DNA of 64,000 bases from Dictyostelium discoideum (GCA_000004695.1 CM000150.2:3424001-3488000); one strand, 5' to 3'; positions 1,762 through 38,190 are shown, numbered from the stretch's first letter. Made by a program: numbers and translations. Notes: generated by a model from the sequence alone, not told the origin.

Positions 1762-2901
1762 TTAAATTAATTTTTCAAACCAATCTTTACCAGCAGCTCT
1801 TTTTGATAAATTTAAACAAGGAATAACTTGTTGAATTGAAGGTATATTACCAAATGAAAGACCAACAAGTGATAGATAGGAATGCATAACATCAGGTAAT
1901 TGACCAGGTTCTTTTGCTACACCACCAATTGCTTCGTGTTGAGCAGAGCCAATGAAAGCATTGATTGAAGCGAAATCGATAAGATCATAACGATCAATCA
2001 TCATTAATGAAGCACCAATCCAAAATGCATAACATGTATCTGGGTCTTTATTTGTACGACCGCAGAAACCAGTGATTTGCTTCTTTACTAACCAAAATGT
2101 TAATTGCTCTTTGAATGGCTCCAATACATCTAATCTTCCCAACAACGATAACGAAGCGATGGCACAGTAAGTTGGACCACCATGTGCTTCTTGTTGTGGT
2201 GTTTGGCCAAATGCAAATTCATAGGATAAACAACTTTTAATATAATCTATTGCGCTCTCTTTATTAATTGCTGACCAGTCATCTAAAATGAATGAAATTG
2301 CACATGCAGAGAATAAATGTCTAAGATCATAATCTCCTACATTTGGTGAACCACTGATTGCACCATCCGATTCTCTTTGTCTCTTTCTTAATGAATCTAT
2401 AATTGCCTTCTTATTTACACCACTAAAATCATCGCCCAATATTCTTAATATCAATAATGCACAATATGTATTTGGTGTACTTGGTAAATCATATTCCAAT
2501 GGTCCATTTTCACTTGTATGTACACTTTTATCACAACAAAATTCTTGTCCTAAAAAATTATATCCTCTAAATCCACAATTTTCTAAATTAATTTCTAAAT
2601 TTTTTTTTTTTTTAAAATAAATTAATAAGAGTGATTTTATTAATTTTTTTTTAAAAGTATATATAATCATCATACCTGGATTATCTTTTGATGGTAATAT
2701 TTGTCTTGAATAAACCCAATTGATAATATCTTGTTTTTCTTTTTCAAGTATATCAGTTTTATTTAAAAGATCTAATCCTGATACTACAAAAAATATTAAT
2801 GATAAATGATTTGGTAAACCTGATGTATATGGTGCTGGTAATGCATTTAATGATCTTTGAAAGAATTTTGCTAATTTTTCTTCATTTATACAACTACCCA
2901 T
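1762..2901 (-). CDS. Geranylgeranyltransferase type-I beta subunit (PGGT1B-like prenyltransferase). Exons complement(2676..2901) and complement(1762..~2594).
   Basis: N-terminus KFFQRSLNALPAPYTS...HLSLIFFVVSGLDLL and the motifs NCGFRGYNFLG and ITGFCGRTNKDPDTCYAFWIGASL align to GGTase-I beta ([33 protein letters not shown]). One intron on the minus strand with a GTATGA donor (plus 2674-75) and a tttag acceptor (plus 2595-99, or the alternative 2583-87). Confidence 0.6.
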   Translation of the reverse strand: MGSCINEEKLAKFFQRSLNALPAPYTSGLPNHLSLIFFVVSGLDLLNKTDILEKEKQDIINWVYSRQILPSKDNPGMMIIYTFKKKLIKSLLLIYFKKKKNLEINLENCGFRGYNFLGQEFCCDKSVHTSENGPLEYDLPSTPNTYCALLILRILGDDFSGVNKKAIIDSLRKRQRESDGAISGSPNVGDYDLRHLFSACAISFILDDWSAINKESAIDYIKSCLSYEFAFGQTPQQEAHGGPTYCAIASLSLLGRLDVLEPFKEQLTFWLVKKQITGFCGRTNKDPDTCYAFWIGASLMMIDRYDLIDFASINAFIGSAQHEAIGGVAKEPGQLPDVMHSYLSLVGLSFGNIPSIQQVIPCLNLSKRAAGKDWFEKLI

Positions 2902-3590
2902 TCTCTTTATTTAATTATCTATTTAATTTATTAATTTCTTTTGATTTGATAATATTTGTTTTTTTTTTTTTAATTTTTGGTATTCAAAAGGTAGTCAATG
3001 AAATTTTTTTTTTTTTTTTTTCATTTTTATTTTTTTATATTTTATTTTTTTTTTTTTAAAAAAAATTAAATTTAATTTTTTGAAAATCAAAATTGGGTTT
3101 ATTAATTGATCTTTAATTTCCTAAATCATAATTTATCATTTATAAATGTTTTTATCGTTTTTTTTTTTTATTGAAATTGCATCAAAAATTAAAAAAAAAA
3201 AAAATTATTTATAATAGACACAATATATATTTTTTTTTTTTATTTTTTTAAACAATATTTTTTTATTTTTAATATGAATTTACTTTTTAAAAATGGGGCA
3301 CTCAAAAATACAAAATGATATATAATATAAAAAAAGATATTTAAAAAAAATGAATGTAAATAATGTTTTTTTTTTTTTTTCTTTATATTTTAAATCAATG
3401 AATTCCATTTTTTTTTAAATATCTAATTTTATAAAAATTTTATTCCTATTAGTTGTTCTTCAAAATAATTTTTTAATTTCAAAGAATTAATGTTAAATAT
3501 AAAATGAACCAATTTAGTCAAAACAATTTTTTTAAATTTCAAACTAAAATATTTTCACTAAATTTTTTTTTTTTTTTTTTTTTTTTTTTC

Positions 3591-3635
<45 letters not shown>

Positions 3636-3649
3636 AAAACTAAACACAA

Positions 3650-4995
3650 ATGACAGATACAACAAAAAACGATAAATATAATTTAAAATTAATAGATTCA
3701 ATGCAAAGTAATTATTTAGAATGATTTTTTTTTTTTCATAGTCTTATAGTTAAATAATATTAATAATAATAATATTAAATAATAATATTAAATAATAATA
3801 TTAAATAATAATTAATAATAACAATAATAGAGGAAGCACCATATGATAAAGTGTGGAATTTAGCATGGCATCCAAATGGTGAGATATTAGCAACATGTGC
3901 AAATGATAAATATATTCAAATATGGAGTAAAGATACAAATGGTAAATGGGGATTAGTTCAATCATTAGAAGGTCATGAAAAAACCGTTAGAAGAGTTGCA
4001 TGGTCACCATGTGGTAGATTTTTAGCAGGTGCAAGTTTTGATGCATCAACTTCAATTTGGGAGAAATCAAAAGATGAATTAGAATTTACACATGTATCTT
4101 CATTAGAAGGTCATACATATGAAGTTAAATCAGTTGCTTGGGATTCAACTGGTACATTATTAGCAACTTGTAGTAGAGATAAATCAATTTGGATTTGGCA
4201 AAGTAAAAAATTTTAAAATAAAATAATAATAGTAATAATTAATAATTATATATATATATATATATTAATATTTAATATAATTAATATAATTTAATAATTT
4301 TATTATATTATAGTGGAAGATGATAATGATTTTGAATGTTTATCAATTAATAGTGGACATGGTCAAGATATTAAATGTGTATTATGGCATCCAAATGAAG
4401 AATTATTAGCAAGTAGTAGTTATGATGATACAATTAAATTTTGGAAAGATATAGATGGTGATTGGGAATGTATTAATACTTTAACTGGTCATGAATCTTC
4501 AATTTGGGATTTAGCTTTCAATAAAGATGGTGATAAATTGGTTTCTTGTGGTGAGGATAAATTGGTTTTATTTTGGAAATTTGATAAAGGTAATAATCTA
4601 TAGATTAATTTTATATATATTACATATTTAAACATTTTTGAATAAATAAATTAAATAAAAATATTTATTAATTTATTTTATTTTTTTATTTTTTTTTAGA
4701 AAATGAAAAATGGATTAATATATTTAAATTTAAAAATGAAAATTCAAGACCAATTTATAGTATTGACTGGTCAAGTTTAACAAATACAATTGTGACTGGT
4801 TCAGCCGATGATAGTATAATATTTTATGAACAAGAAAGTGATGATACACCAGATAAATATAAAATAATATTAAAGAAAAAAAATGCTCACGATAGTGATG
4901 TAAATTGCACGAAATGGAATCCAAAATTTAAAAATATTTTAGCCTCTTGTGGTGATGATGGTTTCATTAAAATTTGGGAATTACAAGATAAATAA
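3650..4995 (+). CDS. ciao1: CIAO1, the WD40 cytosolic Fe-S cluster assembly factor. Exons 3650..3707, 3831..4202, 4314..4589, 4700..4995.
   Basis: Seven WD repeats. SLEGHEKTVRRVAWSPCGRFLAGASFDASTSIWEK, LEGHTYEVKSVAWDSTGTLLATCSRDKSIWIW, CVLWHPNEELLASSSYDDTIKFW and VNCTKWNPK..ILASCGDDGFIKIWEL match human CIAO1 almost collinearly. Donors GTAATT (3708), GTAAAA (4203) and GTAATA (4590), all AG acceptors, phases consistent. Confidence 0.7.
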
Positions 4996-5001
4996 AATAT
5001 T

Positions 5002-5060
<59 letters not shown>

Positions 5061-5085
5061 TATATAATAATAATTTTTTTTTTTA

Positions 5086-5116
<31 letters not shown>

Positions 5117-5231
5117 TTTATTATTTGTTAAATATCGATGAATGAAATGTAAGATATATAGTGAGTGGGTGAAAGTTTAAAAATTTTAATTTAAAATTAT
5201 ATATAAAAAAAAAAGAAAGTTCACATATGTT

Positions 5232-5774
5232 TTAATTTTGAGCAGTAGTTGTGGTAGTGGTTGTGGTAGTTGGTGGTGCTTCTGTTGCTGGGGTAGAATG
5301 GTTTTCAGATGATTCAGCTGGTGCAGCAGCAGCAGGTTCAGGAGAAGAAGTTTGTTTTGCAGATTTTTTAGCTTGACGTTTCTTTTGTTTATCATCCATT
5401 TTCTTTGCTATTTTATCAAAGAATCTTTCAATTTTATTTTCAAATTTATTAAGTTTCTCTTTCATTGTTTCCTTTTTAGATGATGCAGCTTCGACAGCTT
5501 CTTTGGAAGATGATGGTTTATCTTGTTCTTCAACTGCAACAACTTCTACAAAATCACTTTCAATTGGTGATTCTTCATCTTTAACATGATCAATTTTAAT
5601 TTCTGGTGTTTCCATTTTTGGTTCTTCAGCTTTTGGCTCTTCAGCTTTTGGTTCTTCAACTTTTGGTTCTTCAACTTTTGGTTCTTCAACTTTTGGTTCT
5701 TCAACTTTTGGTTCTTCAACCTTTGGTTCTTCAACTTTGGTTTCTACTGGTGTTGTATTTTCAGTTGATGACAT
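5232..5774 (-). CDS. Hypothetical low-complexity protein with (VEEPK)n repeats and a poly-Thr tail
   Basis: Single minus-strand ORF of 180 aa containing eight tandem VEEPK/AEEPK pentapeptides, then a K/E-rich helix and a TTTTTTTTT tail. I recognise no family. The overlapping plus ORFs 5586.. and 5606.. are shadows of the repeat. Confidence 0.4.
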   Translation of the reverse strand: MSSTENTTPVETKVEEPKVEEPKVEEPKVEEPKVEEPKVEEPKAEEPKAEEPKMETPEIKIDHVKDEESPIESDFVEVVAVEEQDKPSSSKEAVEAASSKKETMKEKLNKFENKIERFFDKIAKKMDDKQKKRQAKKSAKQTSSPEPAAAAPAESSENHSTPATEAPPTTTTTTTTTAQN

Positions 5775-7000
5775 TATTAATTTTTTTATTATATATTATT
5801 ATATTTTTTTTTATATTTACAATGAATTATTCAATAATATAATTTTTTAAATTTTATTATTCTTATTATTATTTTTATTTTTTTATTTTTTTAATTTTTT
5901 ATTTTTTTAATATTATTATAAAGTATGAAAGTATATTTATTGAAAAAAAAAAAAAGAATTAATTGTAATATAATTTTATTATATTATTTAAATAAAAAGT
6001 TTTAATGAAAAAAAAAAAAAAAATTAAAAAATTGGATTTTATAAACAAATTCCATTGTATTTAAAATATTTTATTCTTTTTAATTATTATTATTATTATT
6101 TTTTTATTTTATTCACTAATTTTTATATATGTTATTTTTAAAAGGGTGTTTATAGTTCTGACGTTCTCATATTATCTACATTAAATTATAAAAGAAATAA
6201 TGGCAAAATTCTTGTATATATATAAAGTTTTCCACTATGAAGTAATAATATTAATTATTTTTTTTTATTCATAAATTCCTGTTGTATCTGTTTAGATAAC
6301 GTATAATAAAAAATAAAAAAAATTAAAACGTAATCCATCGAACACACAAAATAAAATAAAACAATTAAATAAATAAATAAATAAATAAATTTTGTTTTAA
6401 TTATTTGTTTTTATTAATTTTTTTTATCTTTTAATTTTTTTTTTTTTTATTTTTTTTTTTTTTTTATTTTTTTTTTTTTTTAATAGATTATATTTTACAT
6501 CATATAATTTTTTTAGATTTTTAATTATTGCACCATAAAAAATAATAATTAAATAATTATTTTATATAGTGCAATAATAATATTATTGTTATGAAATTAA
6601 AGTATAATTTTTTCTTTTATAACCCAATGACACTTTTTTGATTTGATTTGTTCCATTTTTTTTAAAATTTAAAGTGAAAATAATTAAATTATGGGGAAAA
6701 TTTGAAGTAGAATATAGATTTTTTATGAATTTTTTCCAATTGTTTCAAAAAAAATAAAATAAAATAAAATAAATAAAAAATTAACATGCTAACAAAATTA
6801 ATAATTTAAGAATTTGAATAAATCACCTTTTTATAAAAAATATGATTTTATTTTTTGGTAATTTTTATTGATTTATTAATTTTTTTAAAAAATTTGTTTG
6901 TTTTTTATTTATTTTAATTAATTAGAGTTTACACACCAAAGGCAATAATAATAAACCAATAATAAGGTTTATAAATTTTTGGACTAAGTGTGTTTTACTG

Positions 7001-7014
7001 AGAGTCGAACCAGT
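7001..7014 (-). promoter_or_regulatory. External B box (exB) downstream of tRNA-Asn
   Basis: Minus strand reads ...ACTGGTTCGACTCTC, about 28-37 bp 3' of the tRNA-Asn end. This matches the GGTTCGANTC B-box consensus that Dictyostelium tRNA genes duplicate downstream. Confidence 0.5.
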
Positions 7015-7039
7015 GGTTTAAATTTTTCCTTAAAAAATT

Positions 7040-7112
7040 CGCCTAGACATGGGATCGAACCATGGACCTAGCGGTTAACAGCCGCTCGCTCTGCCTACTG
7101 AGCCATCCAGGC
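7040..7112 (-). tRNA. tRNA-Asn (anticodon GTT)
   Basis: Reverse complement is GCCTGGATGGCTCAGTAGGCAGAGCGAGCGGCTGTTAACCGCTAGGTCCATGGTTCGATCCCATGTCTAGGCG. Cloverleaf: acceptor 7 bp (one G-U), D arm GCTC/GAGC, anticodon stem AGCGG/CCGCT with loop CTGTTAA, T arm CATGG-TTCGATC-CCATG, discriminator G. A T-run terminator follows directly. Confidence 0.85.
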
Positions 7113-7189
7113 GTATTTGTGATTTTTTATTATTAATTGCAACATAACGTATTTTTTCAAATTAGCATTATTTATCATTTAAAGTAAAA

Positions 7190-7262
7190 TGGAGAAGAAG
7201 GGTATCGATCCCTTTACCTCTCGCATGCTAAGCGAGCGCTCTACCATCTGAGCTACATCCCC
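7190..7262 (-). tRNA. tRNA-Ala (anticodon AGC)
   Basis: Reverse complement is GGGGATGTAGCTCAGATGGTAGAGCGCTCGCTTAGCATGCGAGAGGTAAAGGGATCGATACCCTTCTTCTCCA. The G3:U70 alanine identity pair and A73 are present. Anticodon stem CTCGC/GCGAG with loop TTAGCAT. One T6:T67 mismatch in the acceptor stem and an A54 in the T loop, so tRNAscan confirmation is advisable. Confidence 0.7.
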
Positions 7263-7943
7263 TTTGATGATATAAAAAATAAATTAGCCAGAAAATATAG
7301 AAAAAATAATTATAACAATGAATAACAAAAAACTAAATTAACATCAAAATAAAAATATTTAATTGTGAATTAATTTTTGAATAATTAAATTAATTGATTA
7401 TCCCTTTGCAGTTTTTAAAAAAAGTATTCATTAAAAATTTAATTCAATTTAATTTAATTTAATTTATTAAGACAAAAACTGTTGGGATTATTAGTATTAA
7501 ACTTTTTTCGTCAAAAAAACCCTATATTGTTTGGGTTAACAATTAAAATTTATTATAGTGAAAAAAATATGAAATCTCCACCGCCAAAAGACAAAAATTT
7601 TTGATGGAATATTTTTAAATTTTAATATTATAAATTAAATTTATAAATAGTTGGAACCAGGAATTCAATGTCCATTCCATTTTTAATTTCCTTAATAAAA
7701 AAAAATTGGTATCATTTTTCTTATTTTATTATTTAAAACTTTAAAAAAAAAAAAATTATTTATAAAAAAAAAAAAAAAAACCACGTTTATTTTTAAAAAT
7801 ATCTTTCTAAATTAAATTATTATTATAATAAAATTTTGAAAATAAAATAAAAATAAAAATTATTTTTAGATGTTTTATTAAAAGAAATTTTGATTTTTAG
7901 CAAACACAAAACAGTGTGGTTACACAAAAAAATATCTTGGTTT

Positions 7944-7976
<33 letters not shown>

Positions 7977-8395
7977 TTAATGAAATTATTGATTGTGATT
8001 AAAAATAATTATTTTAAAAATATCTCATGATTTTCTTTTCAAAGCTTAACGGTGTGAATATTTATTTTATTTTTAATTTTTATTTTTACTTTTATTTTTT
8101 ATTTTTTTTTTTTTTATTTTTTTATTTTTTTATTTTTTTTTTTTTTTACTTAAATCATATTTCTTTTTCATTTGTATTATACTTGTAAAATTATTTGTAA
8201 TTTTAATACTGTATTTTAAACCTAAATTATTTTTTTATTTTATTTTATATTTTTTATTTTTTTAATATATATAATTTTTAAAAAGAAAAAAAAGAAAATT
8301 TAAAGATATAAAAAAAAAAAAAAAACAATAATAATAATAATATATTTGTAATAATAATAATAAAAAAAAAAAAAAAAAAAATTGATTAATAAAAA

Positions 8396-9109
8396 ATGGA
8401 CCAAGTTTCAATTGAAATGAGTTCAACACCACGTCCAACAATGGTGAAATCAAAATCACAACTAAGTTTGAGAAGATCACTTACAATTACTTTTAAAGAT
8501 CTTGCCTATTCTGTAACAGTTAAAAAGAAGAAAATGCAAATTCTTAAAGGTGTAAGTGGTACTGTAACCCCTGGTGAATTAGTTGCAGTTTTTGGTCCAT
8601 CTGGTAATTATTTATTTATTTACTTTTTTATCTTTTTTTTTTTCCAAATTTAATTATAAATAAAAAAATTAAATATTCTTTTCTAATTTTTTTTTTTTTT
8701 TTTTTTTTTTTTCCAAATTTAATTATAAATAAAAAATTTTATAGGTAGCGGTAAAACAACATTATTGGATATTTTAGCAAATAGAAAAGAAAGTGGAGAA
8801 ATTTCAGGAGCAGTATTAATCAATGGAAATGAAATTGATGATGATTATAAAAGATTATGTAGTTATGTTGTTCAAGAAGATGTTTTATTACCAACCATTA
8901 CAGTACGTGAAACACTTAGATTTTATGCCGATTTAAAATTACCAAAAAGTTGGACTGAAAAAGAAAAACATGAAAGAATTGAACAAATTTTAGAACAAAT
9001 TGGTTTATCACATAGAGCTGATGCAAAAATTGGTGGTGTTTTACCAGGTGGTATTGTATTAAGAGGTTTATCTGGTGGTGAAAAAAGAAGAGTAAATTTA
9101 GTTTTAAAA

Positions 9110-14412: not shown

Positions 14413-15372
14413 TATATATATTAACAATTTTTTTATTTATTTATTATTTTTATTATTTTTTTATAGAAAAGAAATCTCATTCATATTTTAAAGTTAGAGA
14501 AGAAGGTAGTAATAAAAGACCATCATCATTTTCAGCATCAAATCCAATAACACCAAGTTCACCACAAAGTACACATTCATCACCAATTTATAGGGGAGTA
14601 GGATATCATCAATACAGTAGTGTTAATAGTGGTAATAGTTATAGTGGTAGTGGTAATAACATAAACAATATTATTAATAATAGCAATAATAGCAATAGTA
14701 ATAATCTTTACGGAAATAATAGTAACAATCAATCAAGTGGCAGTCTTGGTAATTTTTTAATTGACAAATTAGAATATTCAGCGGCAACAGTTACAGCATC
14801 AGATTTAAAGAGAGAACGTCAACAATTATTTCGTAACAAAGAGGAATTCACAATGGAATCAAGTAGTTATGGAGGTAGTACCATTGGTGATGATGATTTA
14901 GATTCATTGAATGGTTCATCGTCACAACAATTCAACCATAGAAATTCATCATGGGCCGATAGACGTGAGCGATTCATAAAGAAAGTAATGAATGGTCAAT
15001 TCAATGAGGTACAAATGAGAGATGAACTCAATCGTTTACGTGATATAGAGGCTGATAAAATTAGAGCCGAAGAAAGAAGAACCCCTTCAATGAATATGGA
15101 TGAATTTAAAGCGATAGAGATTGAACGTCTAAGAAAAAAAATTTATCAAGAAGAATTGGTCATATTCCGTCAAGAAGAAATTGAAAAAATACAACGTGAA
15201 GAAAGAATTAAAATTGAAAAAGAATATGATGATAAATCAATCATTTCCTCTCAAGAAAGACAACATATAGTTCAACAAATTATTAATCAAAAAGAAGATG
15301 AAAAAGGCTCATCACCACCTTTTCCAATACCCTTAGTTGTAAATAATAATAATAATGAAAATAATGAAAATG

Positions 15373-15448
<76 letters not shown>

Positions 15449-17900
15449 TATAGATTTAACAAGTTTCAATAATAATATCAATATCAATAGTAATAATAAT
15501 GAAATTAAAAATAATGTAATTGTAGATAGTGACGATGAAGAAGAATTAGAAAGATTAGAACAATTGAGAAGGCAAAGAGAAATTGAACGTTTAAGAGAGG
15601 AGGAAGAGGAGAATGAAGATAGAGTTGAGAGAGAATTGGCATCGCGTAGAAGACAAGAAGAAGATAGAATAAAGAGAGAAGAAGAGGAAGAGGAGGAGGA
15701 ACAACGTAACTATTTAAGAAGATTAAAAGAATTGGAAAGAATTAAACAAATTGAAGAAGAGGAAGAAGAAGAACGTGAAAGACAATCTCAATTACAATCA
15801 TCTCAACAACAACAAAAATCATCAAGTACTCAACGTTCATCAAATACTGTTACATCAACTTCATCATCATCTACTGGTGGTGATTCTAACCCATCAACAT
15901 CACAAAAACCAACTAATCTTTTGAATTTAATGGGATCAAATAATAATATTTCAAATATTAATACAAATATTTTATCACATTCAATTGTAAATAGTAGTGG
16001 AGGTTTACCACCACCACCACCAACAGCTTCACATGTTGACAATAGGTCACGTAGTCATACATTGGCTGGTGAATCACATAGTTCAGAGAATACACCATTA
16101 GTTTCATCAATTGATAATAATGGTGTTAATAATAAAATGTCAAGATCTCATAGTGGTGGTGCATTATCAGGTTTAGCATTACCAACTGCTCCACCTTTAC
16201 CAAACCAACCAAATGTAAATAATAGTAACAACAACAACAACAACAACAACATCAATAATAATCATAATCATAGTCATAATCATTCAAATAATTTACATCA
16301 ATCAGCATTAAAGAATTCATCATCAATGTCAACACCATCAATTTCACCATCACAAGCAGGTAATTCAGCAACTTCAACTGTACCATCATCACCAATTTCA
16401 GCATCAACATCAATGTCATCACCAACATTGGTGGTATCACCACGTAAGGATGAACTTACAACATCAACTGGTTCAACTAGAAAAGGATCAATCTCTGAGA
16501 GAGAAGATAAGAAAAAAGTATCATCTTCATCAACTTCATCATCATCATCTTCAAATGGTGGTCTATCGTCATCAGGTAAAGATCATAAAAAAGATCATAG
16601 TTCTGAAGAGAAGGAGAAAGAAAAGAAATCATTCTTTAACAAACTATTTAGTAAGGAAAAGAAAGATCATCATTCATCATCCAAATCACCTTCATCCGGT
16701 AGTAGTGGTGGTGGTGAGGTGGATGAAAAGAAAAAGAAAAAGTTATCACCACGTGTTGGTACACCATTCAATGTGAAACACGATGTTCATGTGAATTTCA
16801 ATGCTGATACTGGTTTCGAAGGTTTACCAAAGGAATGGGAGGTTTTAATTAAATCCAATTTCCAAGAGCCAGAGGTTATGCAACATCCCGAAGAAGTTTT
16901 GGATGTAGTTAAATTCCATGCTCAATATCAGGGATTGGCTTCTGCACCTGCAATGCATGCACCATCCATTCCATTGACCGATGAGCCACCGGTGACATTG
17001 AATGATCTAATCTCATTGGATGATCCAAAGAAGATCTATTACAATATCAATAAAATCGGTGAAGGTGGTGCTGGTGAAGTATTCGAGGCTATAAACTCTC
17101 GTACCAATCAAACTATTGCCATCAAGAAAATGAAATTGAAAGCTCAAAATCTTAAGACTGTTATCAATGAAATTGGTATGATGAAAAATTCAAATCATGA
17201 AAATATCGTACAATACATCGATAGTTACATTGTGGCCGACGAACTTTGGGTAGCTATGGAGTTTATGAGTGGTGGTTGTTTGACCGAAGTACTCGATCAA
17301 TATCGTGATATCCAATTGAACGAGAGTCAAATCGCATTCGTTTGTCAAGAGGTACTCAGAGGCTTAGAGTACATTCACAAATTCAACCGTATTCATCGTG
17401 ATATAAAGAGTGATAACATTCTCATTGGAGCCAATGGTGAGATTAAATTGGCCGATTTCGGTTACGCAGCTCAATTGACTCAAATTCGTCAAGAGAGAAA
17501 CTCTGTCGTTGGTACCCCCTATTGGATGGCTCCTGAACTCATTAGAGGTAATAACTATGACTTTAAAGTCGACGTTTGGTCACTTGGTATCATGACCAGA
17601 GAAATGGCAGAGGGTGAACCACCTTACCTCGAATTCCCACCACTCAGAGCTTTATTCCTTTTAACCACTCAAGGTTTACCTCCAATCAGAGACGCTCATA
17701 AATGGTCAAAGGAATTCAATGATTTCTTAGCCCTTTGTCTTGAAAAAGATACTGAAAAACGTGCTTCCTCATCTTCATTATTACATCATCCTTTCTTAAA
17801 GAGAGCTTGTTCTGGTCCTGAATTCTATAAAGCTGTTGATGCTGCAAGAATTGAAAAAGAAAATCAATTACAAAATTTTGCTAATTTAACTGCAATTTAA
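12536..17900 (+). CDS. pakA: p21-activated kinase (PAK family, STE20-like) with coiled-coil, acidic, Pro-rich, CRIB and kinase regions. Exons 12536..12542, 12642..12794, 14467..17900.
   Basis: CRIB motif ISPRVGTPFNVKHDVHVNFNADTGFEGLP. Kinase subdomains GEGGAGEVFEA, AIKKM, HRDIKSDNIL, DFG, GTPYWMAPE. The big ORF stays open upstream to an AG acceptor at 14465-66. It joins in phase to a 153-nt exon (EKPKSTTPPPSVSSLRQKFEQFLDKTDKGF...) and a 7-nt ATG exon (ATGGAAG|GTAAAT). The total is 3594 nt, i.e. 1197 codons, and the domain order fits my recollection of the DdPAKa/PakA description. The symbol is an inference from that. Confidence 0.55.
12795..13090. repeat. Tandem duplication of a ~120-bp unit, plus a partial third copy, inside the long pakA intron
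   Basis: The unit gactat[c/t]accaaaaaaaa..ttacaattcct[g/a]ttttcattttatttt..ttattttttactattttttt occurs at about 12795-12905 and again at 12906-13030. A fragment acaattcccatattatc follows at 13083. Confidence 0.6.
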
Positions 17901-19785: not shown

Positions 19786-20577
19786 CCCATTTTTCCAAAA
19801 TAACTTCACCCCAAACCATTTCTATTTTTACATTTTTTTACATTTTTTTATTTTTATTTTATTTTTATTTTATTTTTATTTTATTTTTATTTTTATTTTT
19901 TTGATATTAATAAAAATTTAAATTAAAATTTTATAGCAAACTTTAAAAGAAGAATCAACAAGAAAAAGATACGATTTACAGTTAAGAAGAGAAAGAAGAA
20001 CTTTAGAATCAAAAAAGACAACAACCACAACAACAAATACAACATCAGTAACTGTACCATCAGCACCAACAAAAACATCAACAACAACACCAACAACACC
20101 ATCTAAAAAGTTTGTTCCACCAGTTAAACAAACTACTACAACAGCACCATCATCGACTACTACAACTACATCAACAGCACCATCATCGACTACTACAACT
20201 ACATCAACAGCACCATCATCGACTACAACTACATCAACAGCACCATCATTGACTACAACTACATCAACAGCACCATCATCGACTACTACAACTACATCAA
20301 CATCATCATCATCATCATCATCATCATCATTTTTTGATTCTGAATCTTCAAATACACCACCAACAACAACCACAACCACAACAAAAGAAGATTCAAATTC
20401 AGAAGTTTCTTCACCAAATAAAAAAACATCTACTTCAATACCAAAATCGAGATCAACCTCATCATCATCATCATCATTTGAATCAATGTCAAGAGAAGAT
20501 ACAGTTTTCCCAGAAATTTTCTTTACTAAAAAATCAACTGCACCACCACCATCAACATTTGCTAAAAAATCATCAGC

Positions 20578-20627
<50 letters not shown>

Positions 20628-22174
20628 TTTTTTCATCATCAACGTCAACACCAACCTCTACATCGACATCTACATCAAATACAACAGAAAAAATGGATTT
20701 CTCAGATGAAGATGATATAGTTTCATCGCCAGTTGAAGAAAAATCTGAAGTTAAATCATCTCAAAGTAAATCTTCACAAAACTCAACTCCAACCAAACCA
20801 AAACCTCCAACTTCAAGATCAACTCCATCGAAATCTCATACAACAAGACAATCTGTAAAACATGTATATCAAGAAAGGGATGACAAAGATGAAGAAATTT
20901 ATGAAGATGAAAAAGAAAAAGATCAAGACGAGGTAGAAGATGAAGGATCAGAAAGATCTGATCAAGAGAGACCAACATCAACAAGAAGAGTATCCCATCC
21001 TACAACCAGAAAAGCAAGTTCACCAGTTTCTAAATCTCGTTCAGGTTCCACCTCTTCCTCTAGATCTTCAAGGACATCTGCTTCTAAAGAAGAAGATTCT
21101 GATGCCGAGTATGAAGTCGATAGAATTCTTGACAAGTTGGAAATTGATGGTAATTTGTACTATATTGTAAAATGGAAAGGTTATGGTAACCGTTACAATG
21201 AGTTGGTGGATGTAAGAGATTGCTTCTGTAGTGATTTGATTGAAGAATTTGAGAGAGAGTACAAGAAAAAAGTTGCCAATAGAAAAATGGAAAGAAAAGA
21301 GCGAGAGAAAGAGAGGAGTGAGAGGAGCGAGGAAAGAGAAAGACTTGAAAGGGATAGAGAATCAGCTGAAAAAGAGAAAAAAGAAAAGAGTGAAAGAGAG
21401 AGACGTGAAAGACTTGAAAGGGATAGAGAGAGAAGAGAAAGAGTTGAAAGAGAGAAAAAAGAAAAGAACGATAGAGAAGAAAAAGAACAAAGAGAGGCCG
21501 AAGAAAAGAGACAAAGGGAAAAGGAAAGAAAATTACAAAGAGAAAGAGATGAAAAGGAATTGAGAGCACAACAAAAGGAAAAGGAAGAAAGAGAAAGAGA
21601 ACAAGAACGTCAAGAAAGAGAAAGACTAGAGGCAAAGAGAAGGGTAAAGGAAGAAAAAGATCGTAGAGAAAGAGAAGAGAAGAAAAAGTTAATTTCACCA
21701 AACGTTAAAAAAGCAACTCCTGCCACTAGTGCCAAATCAGTTAAAAGCACTGCTCACAGATCCTCCAGACTACCAATGCCAGTCGTTGAAGCTACCTCTG
21801 AGGAATCCGATGATGAAATGGATAACAACAATTCCTCATCCGATGATGAAACTTTGGTTTCCAGAAATGCTAAAAGTGGTAGTGATTATGATGAACCAGC
21901 TCCACCTCCAAAATATTCAAGCGGAGCCAAAAAGAGAACTCACAAAGCCTCATCAGATGAAGAGGAAGAAGAAGAAGAAGAGGAAGAAGAAGAGGAAGAA
22001 GAAATTGAACCAGAAGAAGATGAATATGTCAGATCATCTTCAAGAGGTTCAAGACCCTCCTCTAAGAAAGTAGCTCCACCACCTCCATCTTCAAGATCTT
22101 CAAGGAGAACTGTAACCCAAACCACAACTACCTCATCAATAAATAATAGAATAAAGAGATCAAAAATAAATTAA
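19410..22174 (+). CDS. DnaJ (J-domain) protein with an internal chromodomain, a Ser/Thr-rich linker, an ER-rich coiled coil and an acidic tail. Exons 19410..19610 and 19937..22174.
   Basis: J domain YGLLNVGENATNSDIKKAFFALSRHVHPDKNNNPEAHRIFPSVNEAY|QTLKEESTRKRYD is split by an intron with GTATGT donor at 19611 and AG acceptor at 19935-36. Chromodomain EYEVDRILDKLEIDGNLYYIVKWKGYGNRYNELVDVRDC. Then about 130 aa of RERERLERDRE repeats and an E17 acidic run. Minus-strand ORFs in this region are shadows. Confidence 0.6.
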
Positions 22175-31192: not shown

Positions 31193-32362
31193 ATGGGTAT
31201 TTCAAATAATAAAAAACAAGCAGTCGATGGTGCAAATCAACAACAAACAGATAAATATCCAAGTAAATCAGGATTACCACCAACAATTGGTAATGGACCA
31301 ATGGAAAAGTATGAACCAAAAGATGAATATATTAGAGTTGACTCAATGCAACAACATTGGATTAGAAGAAAATTAATTTCAGATAAATATCCAGAGATTT
31401 TAAATTTACCAACAAACCATACACCAACAGCATTTTGGGTAATTGGTTTGGTCGCTTCTTTAATTATCACTGCAAAATTATTAGAGAATTCACCAATATG
31501 GTTAATAGTAGTTGTTGCCTATATTTTTGGTGCAACCGTTTCACATGCACTTTGGGTATTAATTCATGAACTCACTCATGATTTAGTCTTTGAAGGTTCA
31601 TTCATGAATTCAGTTTTCCTTTTAATTGCTGATTTACCACATATTGTACCAGCTGGTGTCAGTTTTAGACATTTCCATAGAGTAAGTATCTTATTTATTC
31701 TTTTTTTTAAAAAAAAAAAAAATAAATAATTATTTTTACTAATTTAATTTTATTTTTTTTTAAAGTTACATCATTCATTTTTAAATGAAACTTATACTGA
31801 TCCAGATGTACCAGTACCATTTGAAAATAAACTTTTTGGACATTCAATTGTTGGTAAAGCAATTTGGTTTTGTTTATATTCAATTGTAATTGCATGTAGA
31901 TCAGTTTTCTATCCATTAAAGAATCAATCACCATTCAGTATGTGGTTAGTTGCTAATTACATTTGTAATATTACATTCACTTATGTAATCTTCCAATGGG
32001 TTGGTGTTTATGGTATGACTTATTTAGTATTATCAAGTTTAATGTCTGTTGGTTTCCTTTTACATCCATTAGGTGCTCGTTGGATCGCTGAACATTTCGC
32101 TGTTACTCAATCAGAACAAGAAACTTATTCAACTTATGGTTTAATTAATACCATTGGTTTCAATATTGGTTATCATAATGAACATCATGATTTCGTTCGT
32201 GTTCCATACGTTTATTTACCAACTCTCACTAAAGTTGCTCATGAATTCTATAAAGGTGGTCTTAAATATCATACTTCCTATTGGAGAGTTTTATATGAAT
32301 TCTTAAATCAAGATGGTTTCACTTTTAATAGTAGAGTAGTTAGAAATCCAAAAGTTAAATAA
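31193..32362 (+). CDS. Sphingolipid Δ4-desaturase (dihydroceramide desaturase, DEGS/Des1 family). Exons 31193..31681 and 31766..32362.
   Basis: LISDKYPEILNL, HELTHD, the motif HFHR|LHH split by a GTAAGT intron, HNEHHDF and FYKGGLKYHTSYWRVLYEF align along human DEGS1 (ILAKYPEIKSL, HEIAHN, HMDHH, HNEHHDF, YYDNLPHYNSWIKVLYDF). Confidence 0.75.
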
Positions 32363-32446
32363 ATAAATAAAAAAAAAAAACAATTTTAATTTATTAAAAA
32401 TAAAATAAAATAATAATTCGAAAATTTGCGTTGTATTGTTGAGGTT

Positions 32447-32480
<34 letters not shown>

Positions 32481-32575
32481 TCTTTTTGTAAAAGCACAAG
32501 CAAACCACACCACGAAAACACTTTCCTTTTTTATTTAATTTTTTAAAATTTTTTTTTTTATTTTATTTTCATATT

Positions 32576-32662
32576 ATGAAAAGTATATACTTTATATTTA
32601 TTTTATTAATAGTAATAGTAAATAGTATAGTAAAATCTCAAGAGATATTAAATTATTATATA

Positions 32663-32747
<85 letters not shown>

Positions 32748-35719
32748 GTAGTGATGGTGGTAATGGTACAATTACAAATCCATACCAAAGTTTATGTCAA
32801 TTAAATAATAACTTAAATAAAAATTATTCGCCTATTATAATTAATATTGCATTTGGTTTTTATAATTCTACAAATTGTACAATAGAAATTAATAATATTA
32901 ATGAAATTAAAATAATTCCATATAATGATAATAATAATATTAATAATTATAAAAATGTAATAATAGAAAATATTAAATTAATAATTAATAATTCAAATTT
33001 AAATATAAATGAAATAATAATTACATTTTCATTTAATTATTTTAAACCATTATATATTTGTAATGGTAGTAATGTTAATTTTAATAATGTTGAAATAAGT
33101 TCACCACCATCATCACAATCACTATCACAACCACCATTACCATTATTATTATTATCAACCATAAAATCATCATTTATGTTAATAAATATTATTGATTCAA
33201 ATTTTATACTTTTAAATCAATCAAAATTAATAAATAATGGTGAAGTTGATTTAATAAATTCAAAATTAATTTTAAATGAAAATTCAATATTGGATGGTTT
33301 ATTTATTAATGGTAGAGATAATAGTTTAACAATTATTGAAAATTCTGAAATTATTGATCCAAATTTTTATTTTGAATCAAGTGAATTGTTTATAAATAAT
33401 TCAAAGATTTCAATTAAAAATACAATTTATGAATTCTTTGGATTAAATTATTTTTATTGTTTTAAAATTTCAACATCAATTTTTAAAATGGAAAATACAA
33501 TTATTAAATCATCAATTTATTCTGGTAATGTAATTCTAGTTGGTACTCAAGGTTCTCAATCTACAAATGTAACATTAAACAATATCATTTTAACAGGTTT
33601 AAAAAGTTTTCAATCAATTTTTAAATTTACACTTGGTACTTTTAATATTAATAAAATTACATTTGAAAATTGTATATCATCATGTTTATTTTATATTGAT
33701 TTAATAATTGGTGAAACTTTATTATCAATTAATAATATAAATTTAATTGGTAATAAAAATATAAAATTCATTGAAATTTTAAATCAATCACCATTCTCAC
33801 CACCATTATTAAATATTACAATTTCAAATTTAATTACAACTTGTGATAATACGTACCAAAATTTTATTACAACAATTGAAAATAATAATAGTAATAATAA
33901 TAATAGTAGTAATAATAATAATATTAATTTAAATATTATAAATTCAAAATTAAATTGTATTGGTGAAAGTTGGTTTAGGAATTGTTTAATTTCATTTGAA
34001 AATTTAATTATTGAAACTAGTTTTAAAAATAATTTATTTAATTTTAATAATAATTGTAATGTAATAATTAAATCAAGTATATTTAAAACAAGTAATTATC
34101 CAAATGGTGATGGATTTTTATTTTCAATTGATAATTCAATAGTTGATATTGGTAATTGTACAATTAATAATTGTGAATCACCATTTTTACAATCAAAATT
34201 ATCAAATCTAACAATTAATTCCTGCAATTTTACAAAATCAATTTCTATTGAAAATTCATTACTTTATTCAATTTCATCTATGATGTTAATTAAAAATTGT
34301 AATTTCAATCAATTGAATTATCCAATTTTAATTCATTCAAAAAATTCAAATATTTCTATAATTAATTCAAATATATTAAAATCATCATTTGGTAGATTAC
34401 ATTTAGCATTAATAGAATATTCAAATATAATTTTTAGTGAATTTAATATGACAGAATGTTTCTCTTCAAATAGTTTACTTTATTTTAGTTTAGATAATAC
34501 TACAAGTACTAAAAATTTAAATTATAATTTTTTAATTGAAAATTCAACATTTTTAAAAAATTATGATATGCAAAGTTTAGATGTTAGTTTAATTTATAGT
34601 AAATATATGAATGGAAATATTATTAATAGTAAATTCATTGGGAATTCATTTAGTCCATTAATTAAATCAACTCAATCAACATTATTAATTAAAAATGTAA
34701 CTTATTCAAATAATAGTGGTTCTTTTCATTATGGAAGTAATGATTATTATATTGAGGTTAATGGTTTCACATTAAATAATAGTAGAATTCAATTAGATTA
34801 TCTTTTTGCATTTGAAAATTATTTTAATGTTTTTTTTAAAGATATATTCATCATTAATAATTATCTTAGTCAATATTTATTCATTTTTAATGGTTATATG
34901 TATAATAGTATAACTTTTAATAACTTATTATATATTGATAATTTAATTGTAAATATAAATGGTACTTCAAGAATTCCATTTAATAGTATAATCAATTCGT
35001 CATCTTTATCAACCACATCACAATTTATATTTATAAATAGTGGCTCAATATCATTTAATTCATCAAATATTATAAATAATTTATTACTTTCTTCAATGAT
35101 AAGTATTGAAAATTCAATATTATCATTTTCAGAATGTAATTTATCATTAAATAAATTTCAAGATGTAAATTCTTCAAAATTATTAGACTCTTTTAAATCA
35201 TTAATTATTTTTGAAAATAGTACAATAAATTCAAATATTGGTTCATCAGGTAATGACGAAGGAGTTTTAGTTGGTAAATTACCAGGTTTAATAAATTTAT
35301 TAAATTCAGGAATAAAGATATCATTTTGTAAATTTAAATATAATATATTCCCATTAGATAGAGGTTCTATTATTAGTTATTTTTCAAATAGTTATTTTGA
35401 TAATTATCAATTCAATGTATTTTCATCAGAATTCTCTTCAAATGTTGCAGATATAGGTGGTGTTTTTTATTTTTCAAGTAATTTATTTGATAGTGTTACA
35501 CCATATAATCGTTATAATATTGAATATAATAATTTTTCAAATAATTTTGCAAAAACTGCTGGTGGTGTAATTTGGAGTGATGATTTATTATTTACAACGC
35601 AATTAAATCCTTTTATTTTATCTGTAAACAAATTTTATAATAATTCTTGTATTTTTGGTGAAAATAATTTATCAATTAGTATGTAATTAAAGTATTTTTA
35701 ATTAAAATAATTAAAAACA

Positions 35720-35756
<37 letters not shown>

Positions 35757-36406
35757 AAAATATATTAGTGCCAAAAGATATTTATTTATTTAATAATGAA
35801 CAATATAGTGATGAAATTATAGAATATATATTTTTAGTTAAAAATTATTTTGGTGAAATAGCAACTCAAGTATTTGGTAAATTTAATACATCAATTAAAA
35901 TTAAAACTAATGAAACAATTTTAATTAATGAAACATTTATAACATCAACAATTTATTCTGGTAAAGGTACATTTCAATATAGACTTTATGGTAAAGATTT
36001 AGTTTATACAGTAACAATATTAGATTTAAAACCACAATTATCAATGGATATAAAAATAAAAAATTGTTCACCATTTAAATATTTTGATGGTAATTCAATG
36101 AATTGTATTTATTGTCCAATTGGATACTCATTAAGTGATGAAAAATCAAATTCATGTGTAAAATGTAATAGTGAAATTGTAACTTGTCAATATGGTCAAG
36201 TGTTTTCAAATGAAAATTATTATATGGTTGATAATAGTCCTTTAAAAGTTTATTCATGTGCTAATGATATGTGTAATGGGAATAACACATGTATTGGTGA
36301 TAATAATATTGGTGATTTATGTTACTATTGTACAAATTATCATGAAAGTACTTCAATACAAGCTTCAAAGAATGGTATTCAATGTTGTTCAAATTTCAAT
36401 TTTTAA
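32576..36406 (+). CDS. Large secreted Asn-rich Pmp-repeat (parallel beta-helix-like) protein with a C-terminal Cys-rich module. Exons 32576..35678 and 35769..36406.
   Basis: Signal peptide MKSIYFIFILLIVIVNSIVKSQ. More than 30 degenerate repeats of the Pmp type (FxxN and GGA[ILV]-like: FSNNFAKTAGGVIWSDD, IGGVFYFSSN, FRNCLISFENL, CNFTKSISIENS). A Cys-rich stretch C..C..C..C follows. GTATGT donor at 35679 and AG acceptor at 35767-68 in phase 1. The ORF ends at TAA 36404-06, but see the finding on the downstream frame. Confidence 0.55.
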
Positions 36407-36415
36407 CTTGAATGA

Positions 36416-37399
36416 AAATTTTTCTTTTCATATAGAATTAGTATTTTACCATTATTTAGAATTTCTATTGATTTCTTTGATGGTTATTGTTATTTTAGTG
36501 GTTTAAATTATTTACATAAAGTTTTAATATCAAATTTAATTATTCTCTTTTTATTTATTATTAGTTATTCAGATTTAACAATATGGTTGTTAAATAAATT
36601 TTTAAAAAAAAGAATTATAAATTTACCAAAATCAATTAGAATTATTTTAAAAAGAAATAATAATATTAATAATAATGATATAGTTTATAAAATTAAATGT
36701 TTATGGTCACTATTTCAATTATTATTTATACCAATAATGTTTAATTCAATATCATTATTAGTTAATAAAGTTGTAAATAATGAAAATTTATTAATAATAG
36801 ATTTTACAATTAAATACTTTGGTGGTAATGAATTTCAAATATTATTATCAACATTTTCAATTATAATTATTATTTTAATTTCATTTATTTTAATATCATT
36901 TACAATTATTAATTTAAATTTAATTAATAATAGATTGTTATTATCAAATCATTATTATTTAAATTTAAAAAGAATGATTTCAAAATTAAATTATAGAAAT
37001 GGATTTAAATGGTGGGATATAGTCATTTTAATAAGATCAATCATTTTCATAACACTTTCATTATCAATGATATTCAATCCAATTGATTTCATGCCAATTA
37101 TAATTGCAATTCAATTAATTTATACAATAATTTTCATTTTTATTAATCCTAAAAAAAATGAATTATCAACTTCATCTTTTAAAAAATTAAATATAATAAC
37201 CTCAACAATCACAATATCAGATCCACATAATATTTTAAATATAATTCAATCATTTATATTCATTAGTGTTGGTTCATCATTATTTTTAAAACTTTTACCA
37301 AATATTAGAGGTTTAATTATAACTTGTACATCACTTTTTTTATTTATTTTTTTTATTTTTATATTTAAAAATAATAATAATAATTATAATAAAAAATAA
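36416..37399 (+). CDS. Multi-pass hydrophobic region in the same frame as the Pmp-repeat ORF upstream. It is either the true C-terminal TM domain of that gene, separated only by TAA...TGA, or a separate membrane ORF.
   Basis: The frame stays open from 36416 to 37399 (328 codons) through AT-rich DNA. It encodes 6-8 hydrophobic helices (LFIPIMFNSISLL, IIIILISFILISFTIINL, IIFITLSLSMIF, IIAIQLIYTIIFIF, IFISVGSSLFLKLL, ITCTSLFLFIFFIFIF). There is no ATG near its start, and the track only finds a TTG at 36587. Confidence 0.35.
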   Translation, partial: KFFFSYRISILPLFRISIDFFDGYCYFSGLNYLHKVLISNLIILFLFIISYSDLTIWLLNKFLKKRIINLPKSIRIILKRNNNINNNDIVYKIKCLWSLFQLLFIPIMFNSISLLVNKVVNNENLLIIDFTIKYFGGNEFQILLSTFSIIIIILISFILISFTIINLNLINNRLLLSNHYYLNLKRMISKLNYRNGFKWWDIVILIRSIIFITLSLSMIFNPIDFMPIIIAIQLIYTIIFIFINPKKNELSTSSFKKLNIITSTITISDPHNILNIIQSFIFISVGSSLFLKLLPNIRGLIITCTSLFLFIFFIFIFKNNNNNYNKK

Positions 37400-37466
37400 T
37401 AAGATGGTGGGAATAATTTATATATACAATATTAGTTGTTTTTATTATTTTTTTATTTTTTTTTTT

Positions 37467-38113
37467 TTAATTTGCAGTTGCTTTAATTATTCTAATTTCA
37501 TCAATTGGTTTATCGTTATTTGTTTGCATTGCATTCATTTTTTGTACAACTTTCATTCCAGATTTAACTCTTCCAAAGATTGTATGCTTTCCATCTAACC
37601 AAGGTGTAGGCCCAAATGTAATGCTTTTTCCACACAAAATTAAAGATTAAAAAAAAAAAAAAAATTAAAAAAAAAAAATAAAAATTAGAAAAGATGAATT
37701 GGGTAGGTGTTATATATATATGTTTGTAGATAAGAAAATAATTACAAAAATTGTGATCCATTAGAATTAACACCACTGTTTGCCATTGATAATATTCCTG
37801 CACCTGTATGTTTTAATTCTTTTGTAATTTCATCTTCAAATTTTTTTCTAAGGATTTTATTATTAAAATTATTATTTTCATTTTTATTATTTTCCAAATT
37901 TTAATTCAAGTTAGTTTAATATTATTTTCTAAATTTCTAATTTTATGTAATATTTTTAAATGAAAAATTACCCATATATACTTTCACCTCCACGACCATT
38001 TCCTAATGGATCTCCTCCTTGTATCATAAAATCCTTTATGTTTTATTTAATTTTTTTTTTTTTTTATTAAAAATTTTAAAAAAAATAGTGTTAATGATTA
38101 ATGGATCTTATGA

Positions 38114-38190
<77 letters not shown>

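Follow-up and report, generated by a model that had tools for sequence, protein, structure and literature searches.

A deletion with an inverted templated insertion probably disabled a nine-transmembrane surface-protein gene in the AX4 lineage of Dictyostelium discoideum

A single complex mutation, combining a deletion with an inverted templated insertion, very probably disabled a gene for a surface protein with nine transmembrane (TM) helices in the lineage that gave rise to the AX4 reference of Dictyostelium discoideum. The locus occupies positions 32576-37399 on the plus strand of a 64,000-nt stretch of AX4 chromosome 1 (the window), and the best reading of the sequence comparisons as a whole, held here with high confidence, is that this interval was formerly one gene for a protein of ~1,580 aa from a family confined to dictyostelids. 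The original prediction, made from the sequence of the window, had pointed to two stop codons separating a long secreted-protein frame from a hydrophobic frame, and offered three outcomes: an alternative splice giving a GPI-anchored form, a very recent pseudogenisation or strain polymorphism, or tandem-stop readthrough. The comparative data show the second of these. They also reveal the absence of ~36 codons at the stops, which the sequence of one genome alone cannot reveal. The event is of an ordinary kind, a recent gene-disabling mutation, and neither readthrough nor a special splice form is likely to be involved.

The window DNA has a G+C content of ~20%, encodes poly-Asn tracts and contains short AT-rich introns of the GT..AG type. 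Exon 1 (32576-35678), as read from the ORF and its translation, encodes a hydrophobic N-terminus with the signal peptide MKSIYFIFILLIVIVNSIVKSQ, a poly-Asn tract and a long beta-helix-like ectodomain, and is collinear with the homologues KAM9960609.1 and KAM9961660.1 and with other family members. It is followed by a 90-nt in-frame intron (35679-35768, GTATGT...poly-T...TAG) that is also found in the orthologous loci L001, L002 and L007; annotated proteins join NNLSI to MPKDIY. Five frame-2 TAA codons (35684, 35699, 35708, 35723 and 35756) fall within this genuine intron, and the two later stops are therefore not the only ones in 4.8 kb of that frame, as had been proposed. The second exon up to the left breakpoint (35769-36399) encodes a Cys-rich stalk that ends in the conserved KNGIQCCSNF, has a weak Pfam match to Ephrin_rec_like, and carries invariant cysteines and a CC motif in the family alignments; the DNA up to 36399 is identical or nearly identical in L001, L002, L004 and L007. 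Beyond the lesion (36400-36420), the rest of the former exon 2 (36421-37399) is open in frame 2 to the TAA at 37397 and encodes the conserved extracellular loop FFSYRISILPLFRISIDFFDGYCYF and seven TM helices (36521-36592, 36698-36763, 36839-36916, 37016-37075, 37091-37144, 37241-37297 and 37313-37366), this part of the gene aligning to TM helices 3-9 of the family.

Both stops are present as described, TAA at 36404-36406 and TGA at 36413-36415 with CTT GAA between them, and frame 2 is indeed common to the long ORF before them and the hydrophobic one after them (36416-37396, 327 codons plus stop). The 57 codons at 36416-36586 are stop-free with P ~0.007-0.009 under the local composition, near the claimed 0.004. 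The more relevant figure, because only ATG counts in a eukaryote, is the run of 107 stop-free codons before the first ATG after the stops (36737, within the second remaining TM helix), for which P is ~1e-5. The original prediction took the sequence following the TGA to be coding, and rightly so: it is the conserved family loop FFSYRISILPLFRISIDFxDGYCYF. Codon-usage scoring across the junction gave no discrimination in this very AT-rich gene, and neither did the G+C content of candidate introns versus exons. Exact look-up of the candidate AX4 products (1,246, 1,259, 1,528 and 220 aa) returned no record in the protein collection, and the same held for ORFs of the window.

To delineate the protein family, the C-terminal 522 aa served as the query of an index-free HMMER search. 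It found 19 relatives, most of them of 1,400-1,650 aa, with the closest spanning both query halves. The phmmer matches of this search include those with E-values that place the gene in the family (E=4e-271 to KAM9960609.1 and 2e-68 to the D. firmibasis protein RB653_007406), and tblastn produced one single alignment over aa 1-1587. The homologues encoded as single proteins include KAM9960609.1 (1,581 aa) and KAM9961660.1 (1,587 aa), both labelled D. discoideum, RB653_007406 (1,578 aa), DICPUDRAFT_76333 of D. purpureum (1,543 aa), the AX4 paralogue DDB_G0272102 (Q55A59, 1,652 aa) and proteins of T. lacteum (DLAC_10212, DLAC_10210 and DLAC_10607). Further relatives are the AX4 paralogue DDB_G0268930 and proteins of A. 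subglobosum; no paralogue of the gene lies within the window. As for the proposed comparison with paralogues, those from D. firmibasis, D. purpureum and T. lacteum have the same build, with the TM domain in one protein with the ectodomain.

The family layout consists of a signal peptide, a beta-helix ectodomain, a Cys-rich stalk and nine TM helices. The AX4 copy is collinear with it in the ectodomain, the stalk and the TM domain, which places it in this dictyostelid family, and lacks helices 1-2 of the complete C-terminal domain. Features shared with these dictyostelid proteins, which are labelled 'Transmembrane protein', comprise the signal peptide, NxxI-type beta-helix repeats, two FxxN...GGxI motifs, the Cys-rich stalk ending in KNGIxCCS, the loop FFSY..LPLFRxSID..C, and the motifs WSLFQ, FKWWD and IQIxYT in the TM domain. 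The label 'Pmp-repeat' given to the ectodomain in the original prediction could not be upheld, the window protein having no Pfam match to Chlam_PMP at E<=1 and the best score in the family (17.4 bits, for the D. purpureum homologue) falling below the 20.6-bit cut-off. The resemblance to chlamydial Pmp proteins (PF02415) is in a repetitive beta-helix-like ectodomain with a few FxxN/GGxI-type motifs, such as FSSNVADIGGVFYF and FSNNFAKTAGGVIW, whereas the gene is eukaryotic and its anchor is a multi-TM helical domain, not an autotransporter beta-barrel. Adhesion-type and other 7TM receptors also have a large ectodomain followed by a polytopic helical domain, predicted here to be N-out/C-in, but the intact family has nine helices, not seven. 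Neither the window protein nor the family has a GAIN/GPS or 7tm match in Pfam, and no G-protein-coupled receptor was among the fold-search matches of the intact TM domain, so that neither sequence nor structure assigns the family to these receptors. The same fold searches found no significant relative, a PDB sequence search with the TM ORF found nothing, and nothing relevant was found in the literature on the family, the neighbouring genes, the paralogues or the new assemblies. This beta-helix/9-TM family is uncharacterised, and has neither a Pfam model nor a relative with a solved structure.

A technical observation concerns the searches themselves. The word-indexed protein search missed KAM9960609.1, which is 91% identical, for both gene queries, although the index-free search recovers it with E=4e-271. 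The fused 522-aa query returned nothing, the search being saturated by 8,000 low-complexity word candidates, and exon 2 alone returned only a 178-aa fragment from D. dimigraforme. The word index appears to be defeated by low-complexity AT-rich proteomes.

The orthologous loci L003-L008 were fetched using the neighbouring gene cypE as a synteny anchor. This gene (DDB_G0269216, 37467-38395, minus strand, 156 aa, three introns) was spliced by hand and matches EAL71958.1 exactly. Between cypE and fatty-acid desaturase genes, L001, L002 and L007 are open from the ATG to the shared terminal TAA, with a coding sequence 3-5.5% different from AX4; the syntenic gene is thus one uninterrupted protein of ~1,580 aa in three divergent lineages named D. 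discoideum. At the stop site, the orthologues have sense codons and 36 additional codons, and the stops are confined to the AX4 lineage.

Alignment with the intact alleles defines the lesion at the nucleotide level. Where they have 128 nt, AX4 has 20-21 nt, a net change of -108 nt or 36 codons, and the same gap versus AX4 appears in the DNA alignments of L001, L002, L004 and L007. In the alignment with L001, window positions 32000-36399 correspond to 2373-6749 and positions 36420-38148 to 6878-8573, so that the breakpoints pair 36399 with 6749 and 36420 with 6878. The AX4 filler consists of TTT and an 18-mer at 36403-36420, TTAACTTGAATGAAAATT, that is the exact reverse complement of L001 6852-6869, AATTTTCATTCAAGTTAA, which encodes IFIQVN and is the end of the missing piece in the intact allele. 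None of 20,000 shuffles of the filler reached an 18-nt inverted match. Both the TAA at 36404 and the TGA at 36413 lie inside this inverted piece. The junction of the intact homologues reads KNGIQCCSNF-KPILLLPVFLIFLIFALLLSILKYTIFNSILGSIIIFIQVNSV-VFFSYRISILPLFRISIDFIDGYCYF, and that of AX4 KNGIQCCSNF-NF(stop)LE(stop)K-FFFSYRISILPLFRISIDFFDGYCYF. The lost segment encodes TM helices 1-2 (which an AlphaFold model of the intact domain places at 12-32 and 40-57), includes the invariant S30 and Q49, and is conserved in 11 of 11 aligned family members. Since the net loss of 108 nt is a multiple of three, the frame is the same on both sides of the stops, and this coincidence creates the illusion of a continuous frame interrupted by two stops.

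We propose that one complex mutation at the start of the TM domain exchanged the 128 nt for ~20 nt, 18 of which repeat, in inverted orientation, the last bases of what was lost. Judging from the scar, a break may have been sealed by a short templated insertion of the snap-back or template-switch type; deletions with a short inverted templated insertion have been described for microhomology/polymerase-theta-type end joining and for replication template switching. The inverted scrap reads TAA and TGA in the kept frame, and translation should stop at 36404. The predicted outcome at the mRNA and protein level would be a 1,246-aa ectodomain devoid of its membrane anchor, or no stable product. The downstream 327 codons would still be open because the lesion is young. 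The locus resembles a unitary pseudogene or a disabling structural polymorphism in its intact syntenic orthologues, in having one compact stop-introducing lesion, in a filler that is an exact reverse-complement copy of adjacent sequence and in the undecayed state of the remaining ORF, and stands apart in that its net change happens to be a multiple of three. An intact orthologue exists at the syntenic position, and the lesion is derived, should block the full product and is real.

Clones of AT-rich Dictyostelium DNA are known to undergo rearrangement in E. coli, and a small deletion with an inversion is the type of change that such clones produce. The AX4 reference could thus contain an assembly or cloning artefact at a site where the true genome has the 128-nt segment, but we regard this as very unlikely, as a second assembly carries the identical lesion. 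The 3.2-Mb contig L003 (GCA_054883475.1) contains window positions 36300-36600 exactly; across 14.5 kb its identity to the window amounts to 99.8%, the differences being 1 mismatch and 25 gap columns. This contig represents a separate assembly, since its homopolymer and microsatellite lengths differ from those of the window elsewhere. The L003 strain may belong to the same laboratory lineage as AX4, in which case it is silent on the natural spread of the lesion.

Readthrough or recoding of the TAA and TGA into a fused protein, another of the outcomes offered, draws on nothing beyond the same frame on both sides and the open downstream ORF. It would have to pass two stops within four codons, both of which lie in the inverted scrap and are lacking in every intact orthologue, so that the conserved stop and context expected of programmed readthrough were not found among the orthologues; the product would still lack the 36 conserved codons, including two TM helices. 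We know of no stop-codon reassignment in Dictyostelium, and consider this explanation extremely improbable.

The remaining outcome, an alternative GPI-anchored form, would use a 61-nt intron at 36375-36435. The tail ELVFYHYLEFLLISLMVIVILVV followed by a stop, which was proposed as a GPI signal and might also serve as a tail anchor, does arise in frame 0 from the GT at 36375 and the AG at 36435; its acceptor comes with a good pyrimidine tract, and the resulting tail is strongly hydrophobic. The proposed intron is, however, conserved coding sequence, with the two splice sites lying within GIQCCSNF and FFSYRI, respectively. The same pair in intact alleles would delimit 169 nt and destroy the frame, and these are therefore not established splice sites. 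Moreover, 61 nt is shorter than any of five checked introns (about 80 to 212 nt), and the tail comes from reading conserved T-rich codons out of frame, codons that would be hydrophobic in any frame; it is preceded, as judged by eye, by neither a hydrophilic spacer nor a small-residue omega region. No genuine intron yielding a C-terminal signal was found here, and this possibility is given little weight.

Contrary to the statement that every canonical GT..AG pair around the stops shifts to frame 0, in-frame pairs exist. The donors at 36375, 36384 and 36387 combine with the acceptor AG at 36520-36521 into introns of 147, 138 and 135 nt, and all three keep frame 2 for 292 codons beyond 36521. The scar could accordingly be removed as a new in-frame intron, 36375-36521 or 36384-36521, with a product of ~1,520 aa whose ectodomain would run straight into the last seven TM helices. 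We consider such rescue unlikely, though less so than the alternatives above. The loss of two helices and a loop would preserve the N-out/C-in topology, with the K/R-rich loops cytoplasmic as judged by eye; the acceptor ACATAAAG is like the genuine acceptor of cypE intron 1; and the automatic annotation of GCA_054883475.1 uses 36384-36521. The donor GTTGTT, on the other hand, lacks the GTA found in five of five checked introns in the window, and GTATTC is also weak. Splicing at these sites would also cost the protein the best-conserved stretch of its TM domain, CCSNF and FFSYRISILPLFRISIDFxDGYCYF, including the invariant F66, R67, S69, C77 and K87, and the same sites are plain coding sequence in intact alleles. 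A 147-nt in-frame intron giving a 7-TM protein was also considered as the main reading and was rejected, as the orthologues show conserved coding sequence there and 36 codons missing. If rescue splicing did operate, it would be a case of intronisation caught in the act, converting a 9-TM into a 7-TM protein.

As for the annotation evidence, gene predictors routinely create introns to bypass stops, and the same pipeline also calls a doubtful last intron, at the cost of a conserved helix. The annotated GCA_054883475.1 product has 1,517 aa and is reproduced only by the splice set 35679-35768, 36384-36521 and 37326-37403, and we regard the latter two introns as prediction artefacts. The last of them (78 nt, GTACAT..AATAAG) is predicted in the models of two assemblies, L001 and L003, where it removes the final conserved TM helix and leaves a protein ending in LIITC joined to GNNLY(I/L)QY. 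This helix is kept in KAM9961660.1, the model of a third assembly, in all paralogues and in the plain ORFs of L001, L002 and L007; from these comparisons, the 78-nt intron is probably an annotation artefact.

Substitutions specific to AX4 bear on the age of the disabling mutation. Upstream of the lesion, 14 synonymous and 12 non-synonymous changes give dN/dS ~0.22 (P=0.00016 under neutrality), and over the whole gene 19 and 16 changes, respectively, give ~0.22 (P=1e-5). Downstream, 5 synonymous and 4 non-synonymous changes give ~0.21 (P=0.02), a test that comprises nine codon changes in an unrooted comparison, in which some of the 'AX4 branch' may be older than the lesion. With neutrality rejected, the TM part was therefore constrained over most of the AX4 branch, and this points to a young lesion. 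The downstream value would equally fit a TM region that is still in use; it counts in favour of rescue splicing, which, if true, would explain it.

The disabling mutation in AX4 is not the only disruption of this gene. In L004 (GCA_054859205.1), an unrelated sequence of 182 nt, with stops in every frame, has taken the place of 788 nt of the ectodomain (window 34796-35583), and this disruption is independent of the AX4 lesion. The insert, at ~4842-5023 on the reverse complement of L004, contains A-runs and a G/C-rich inverted repeat, GGGAGGGGTAGTTT...AAACTACCCCTCCC, and resembles either a small inserted element or the footprint of a transposon. At the corresponding loci of D. citrinum (L006) and D. 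dimigraforme (L008), also between cypE and the fatty-acid desaturase genes, the orthologue is mostly deleted in the former, with only ~620-nt and ~320-nt remnants, and in the latter is split across several frames and annotated as pieces of 113-178 aa, indicating repeated loss in the D. discoideum species complex. In this complex, the gene is broken or lost at least four separate times and its intact copies evolve fast, a pattern typical of dispensable surface or recognition genes.

The 'Dictyostelium discoideum' assemblies L001, L002, L004 and L007 differ in the coding sequence of this gene by 3-5% from AX4 and by up to 7% from each other, far above the diversity usually quoted for D. discoideum. 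They may represent cryptic lineages, or this locus may be evolving unusually fast.

For annotation purposes, the AX4 locus should be described as a pseudogene or a truncated secreted ectodomain, and not as two genes, a readthrough gene or a GPI protein. More generally, two stops in an otherwise continuous frame can signal a missing piece whose length is a multiple of three, and only an orthologue reveals it. The standard laboratory strain would be a natural null for this family member.

Several other features of the window were recorded. On the minus strand, the ORF at 1762-2898 matches DDB_G0269726 of AX4 with 100% identity once an in-frame intron is set aside, which together with the exact cypE match identifies the window as AX4 chromosome 1, and genes for tRNA-Asn(GTT) and tRNA-Ala(AGC) are adjacent at 7039-7113 and 7190-7262. 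A 641-codon ORF (20249-22174, plus strand) lies in an island of 36% G+C with a strong A-over-T skew; it has no Pfam match at E<=0.001, and its low-complexity sequence, rich in Ser/Thr and in Glu/Arg/Lys, surrounds a stretch judged chromodomain-like by eye, DRILDKLEIDGNLYYIVKWKGYG. Finally, a PAK-type kinase ORF with a p21-Rho-binding domain and a protein kinase domain occupies 14853-17900 on the plus strand, in a region of 35% G+C.
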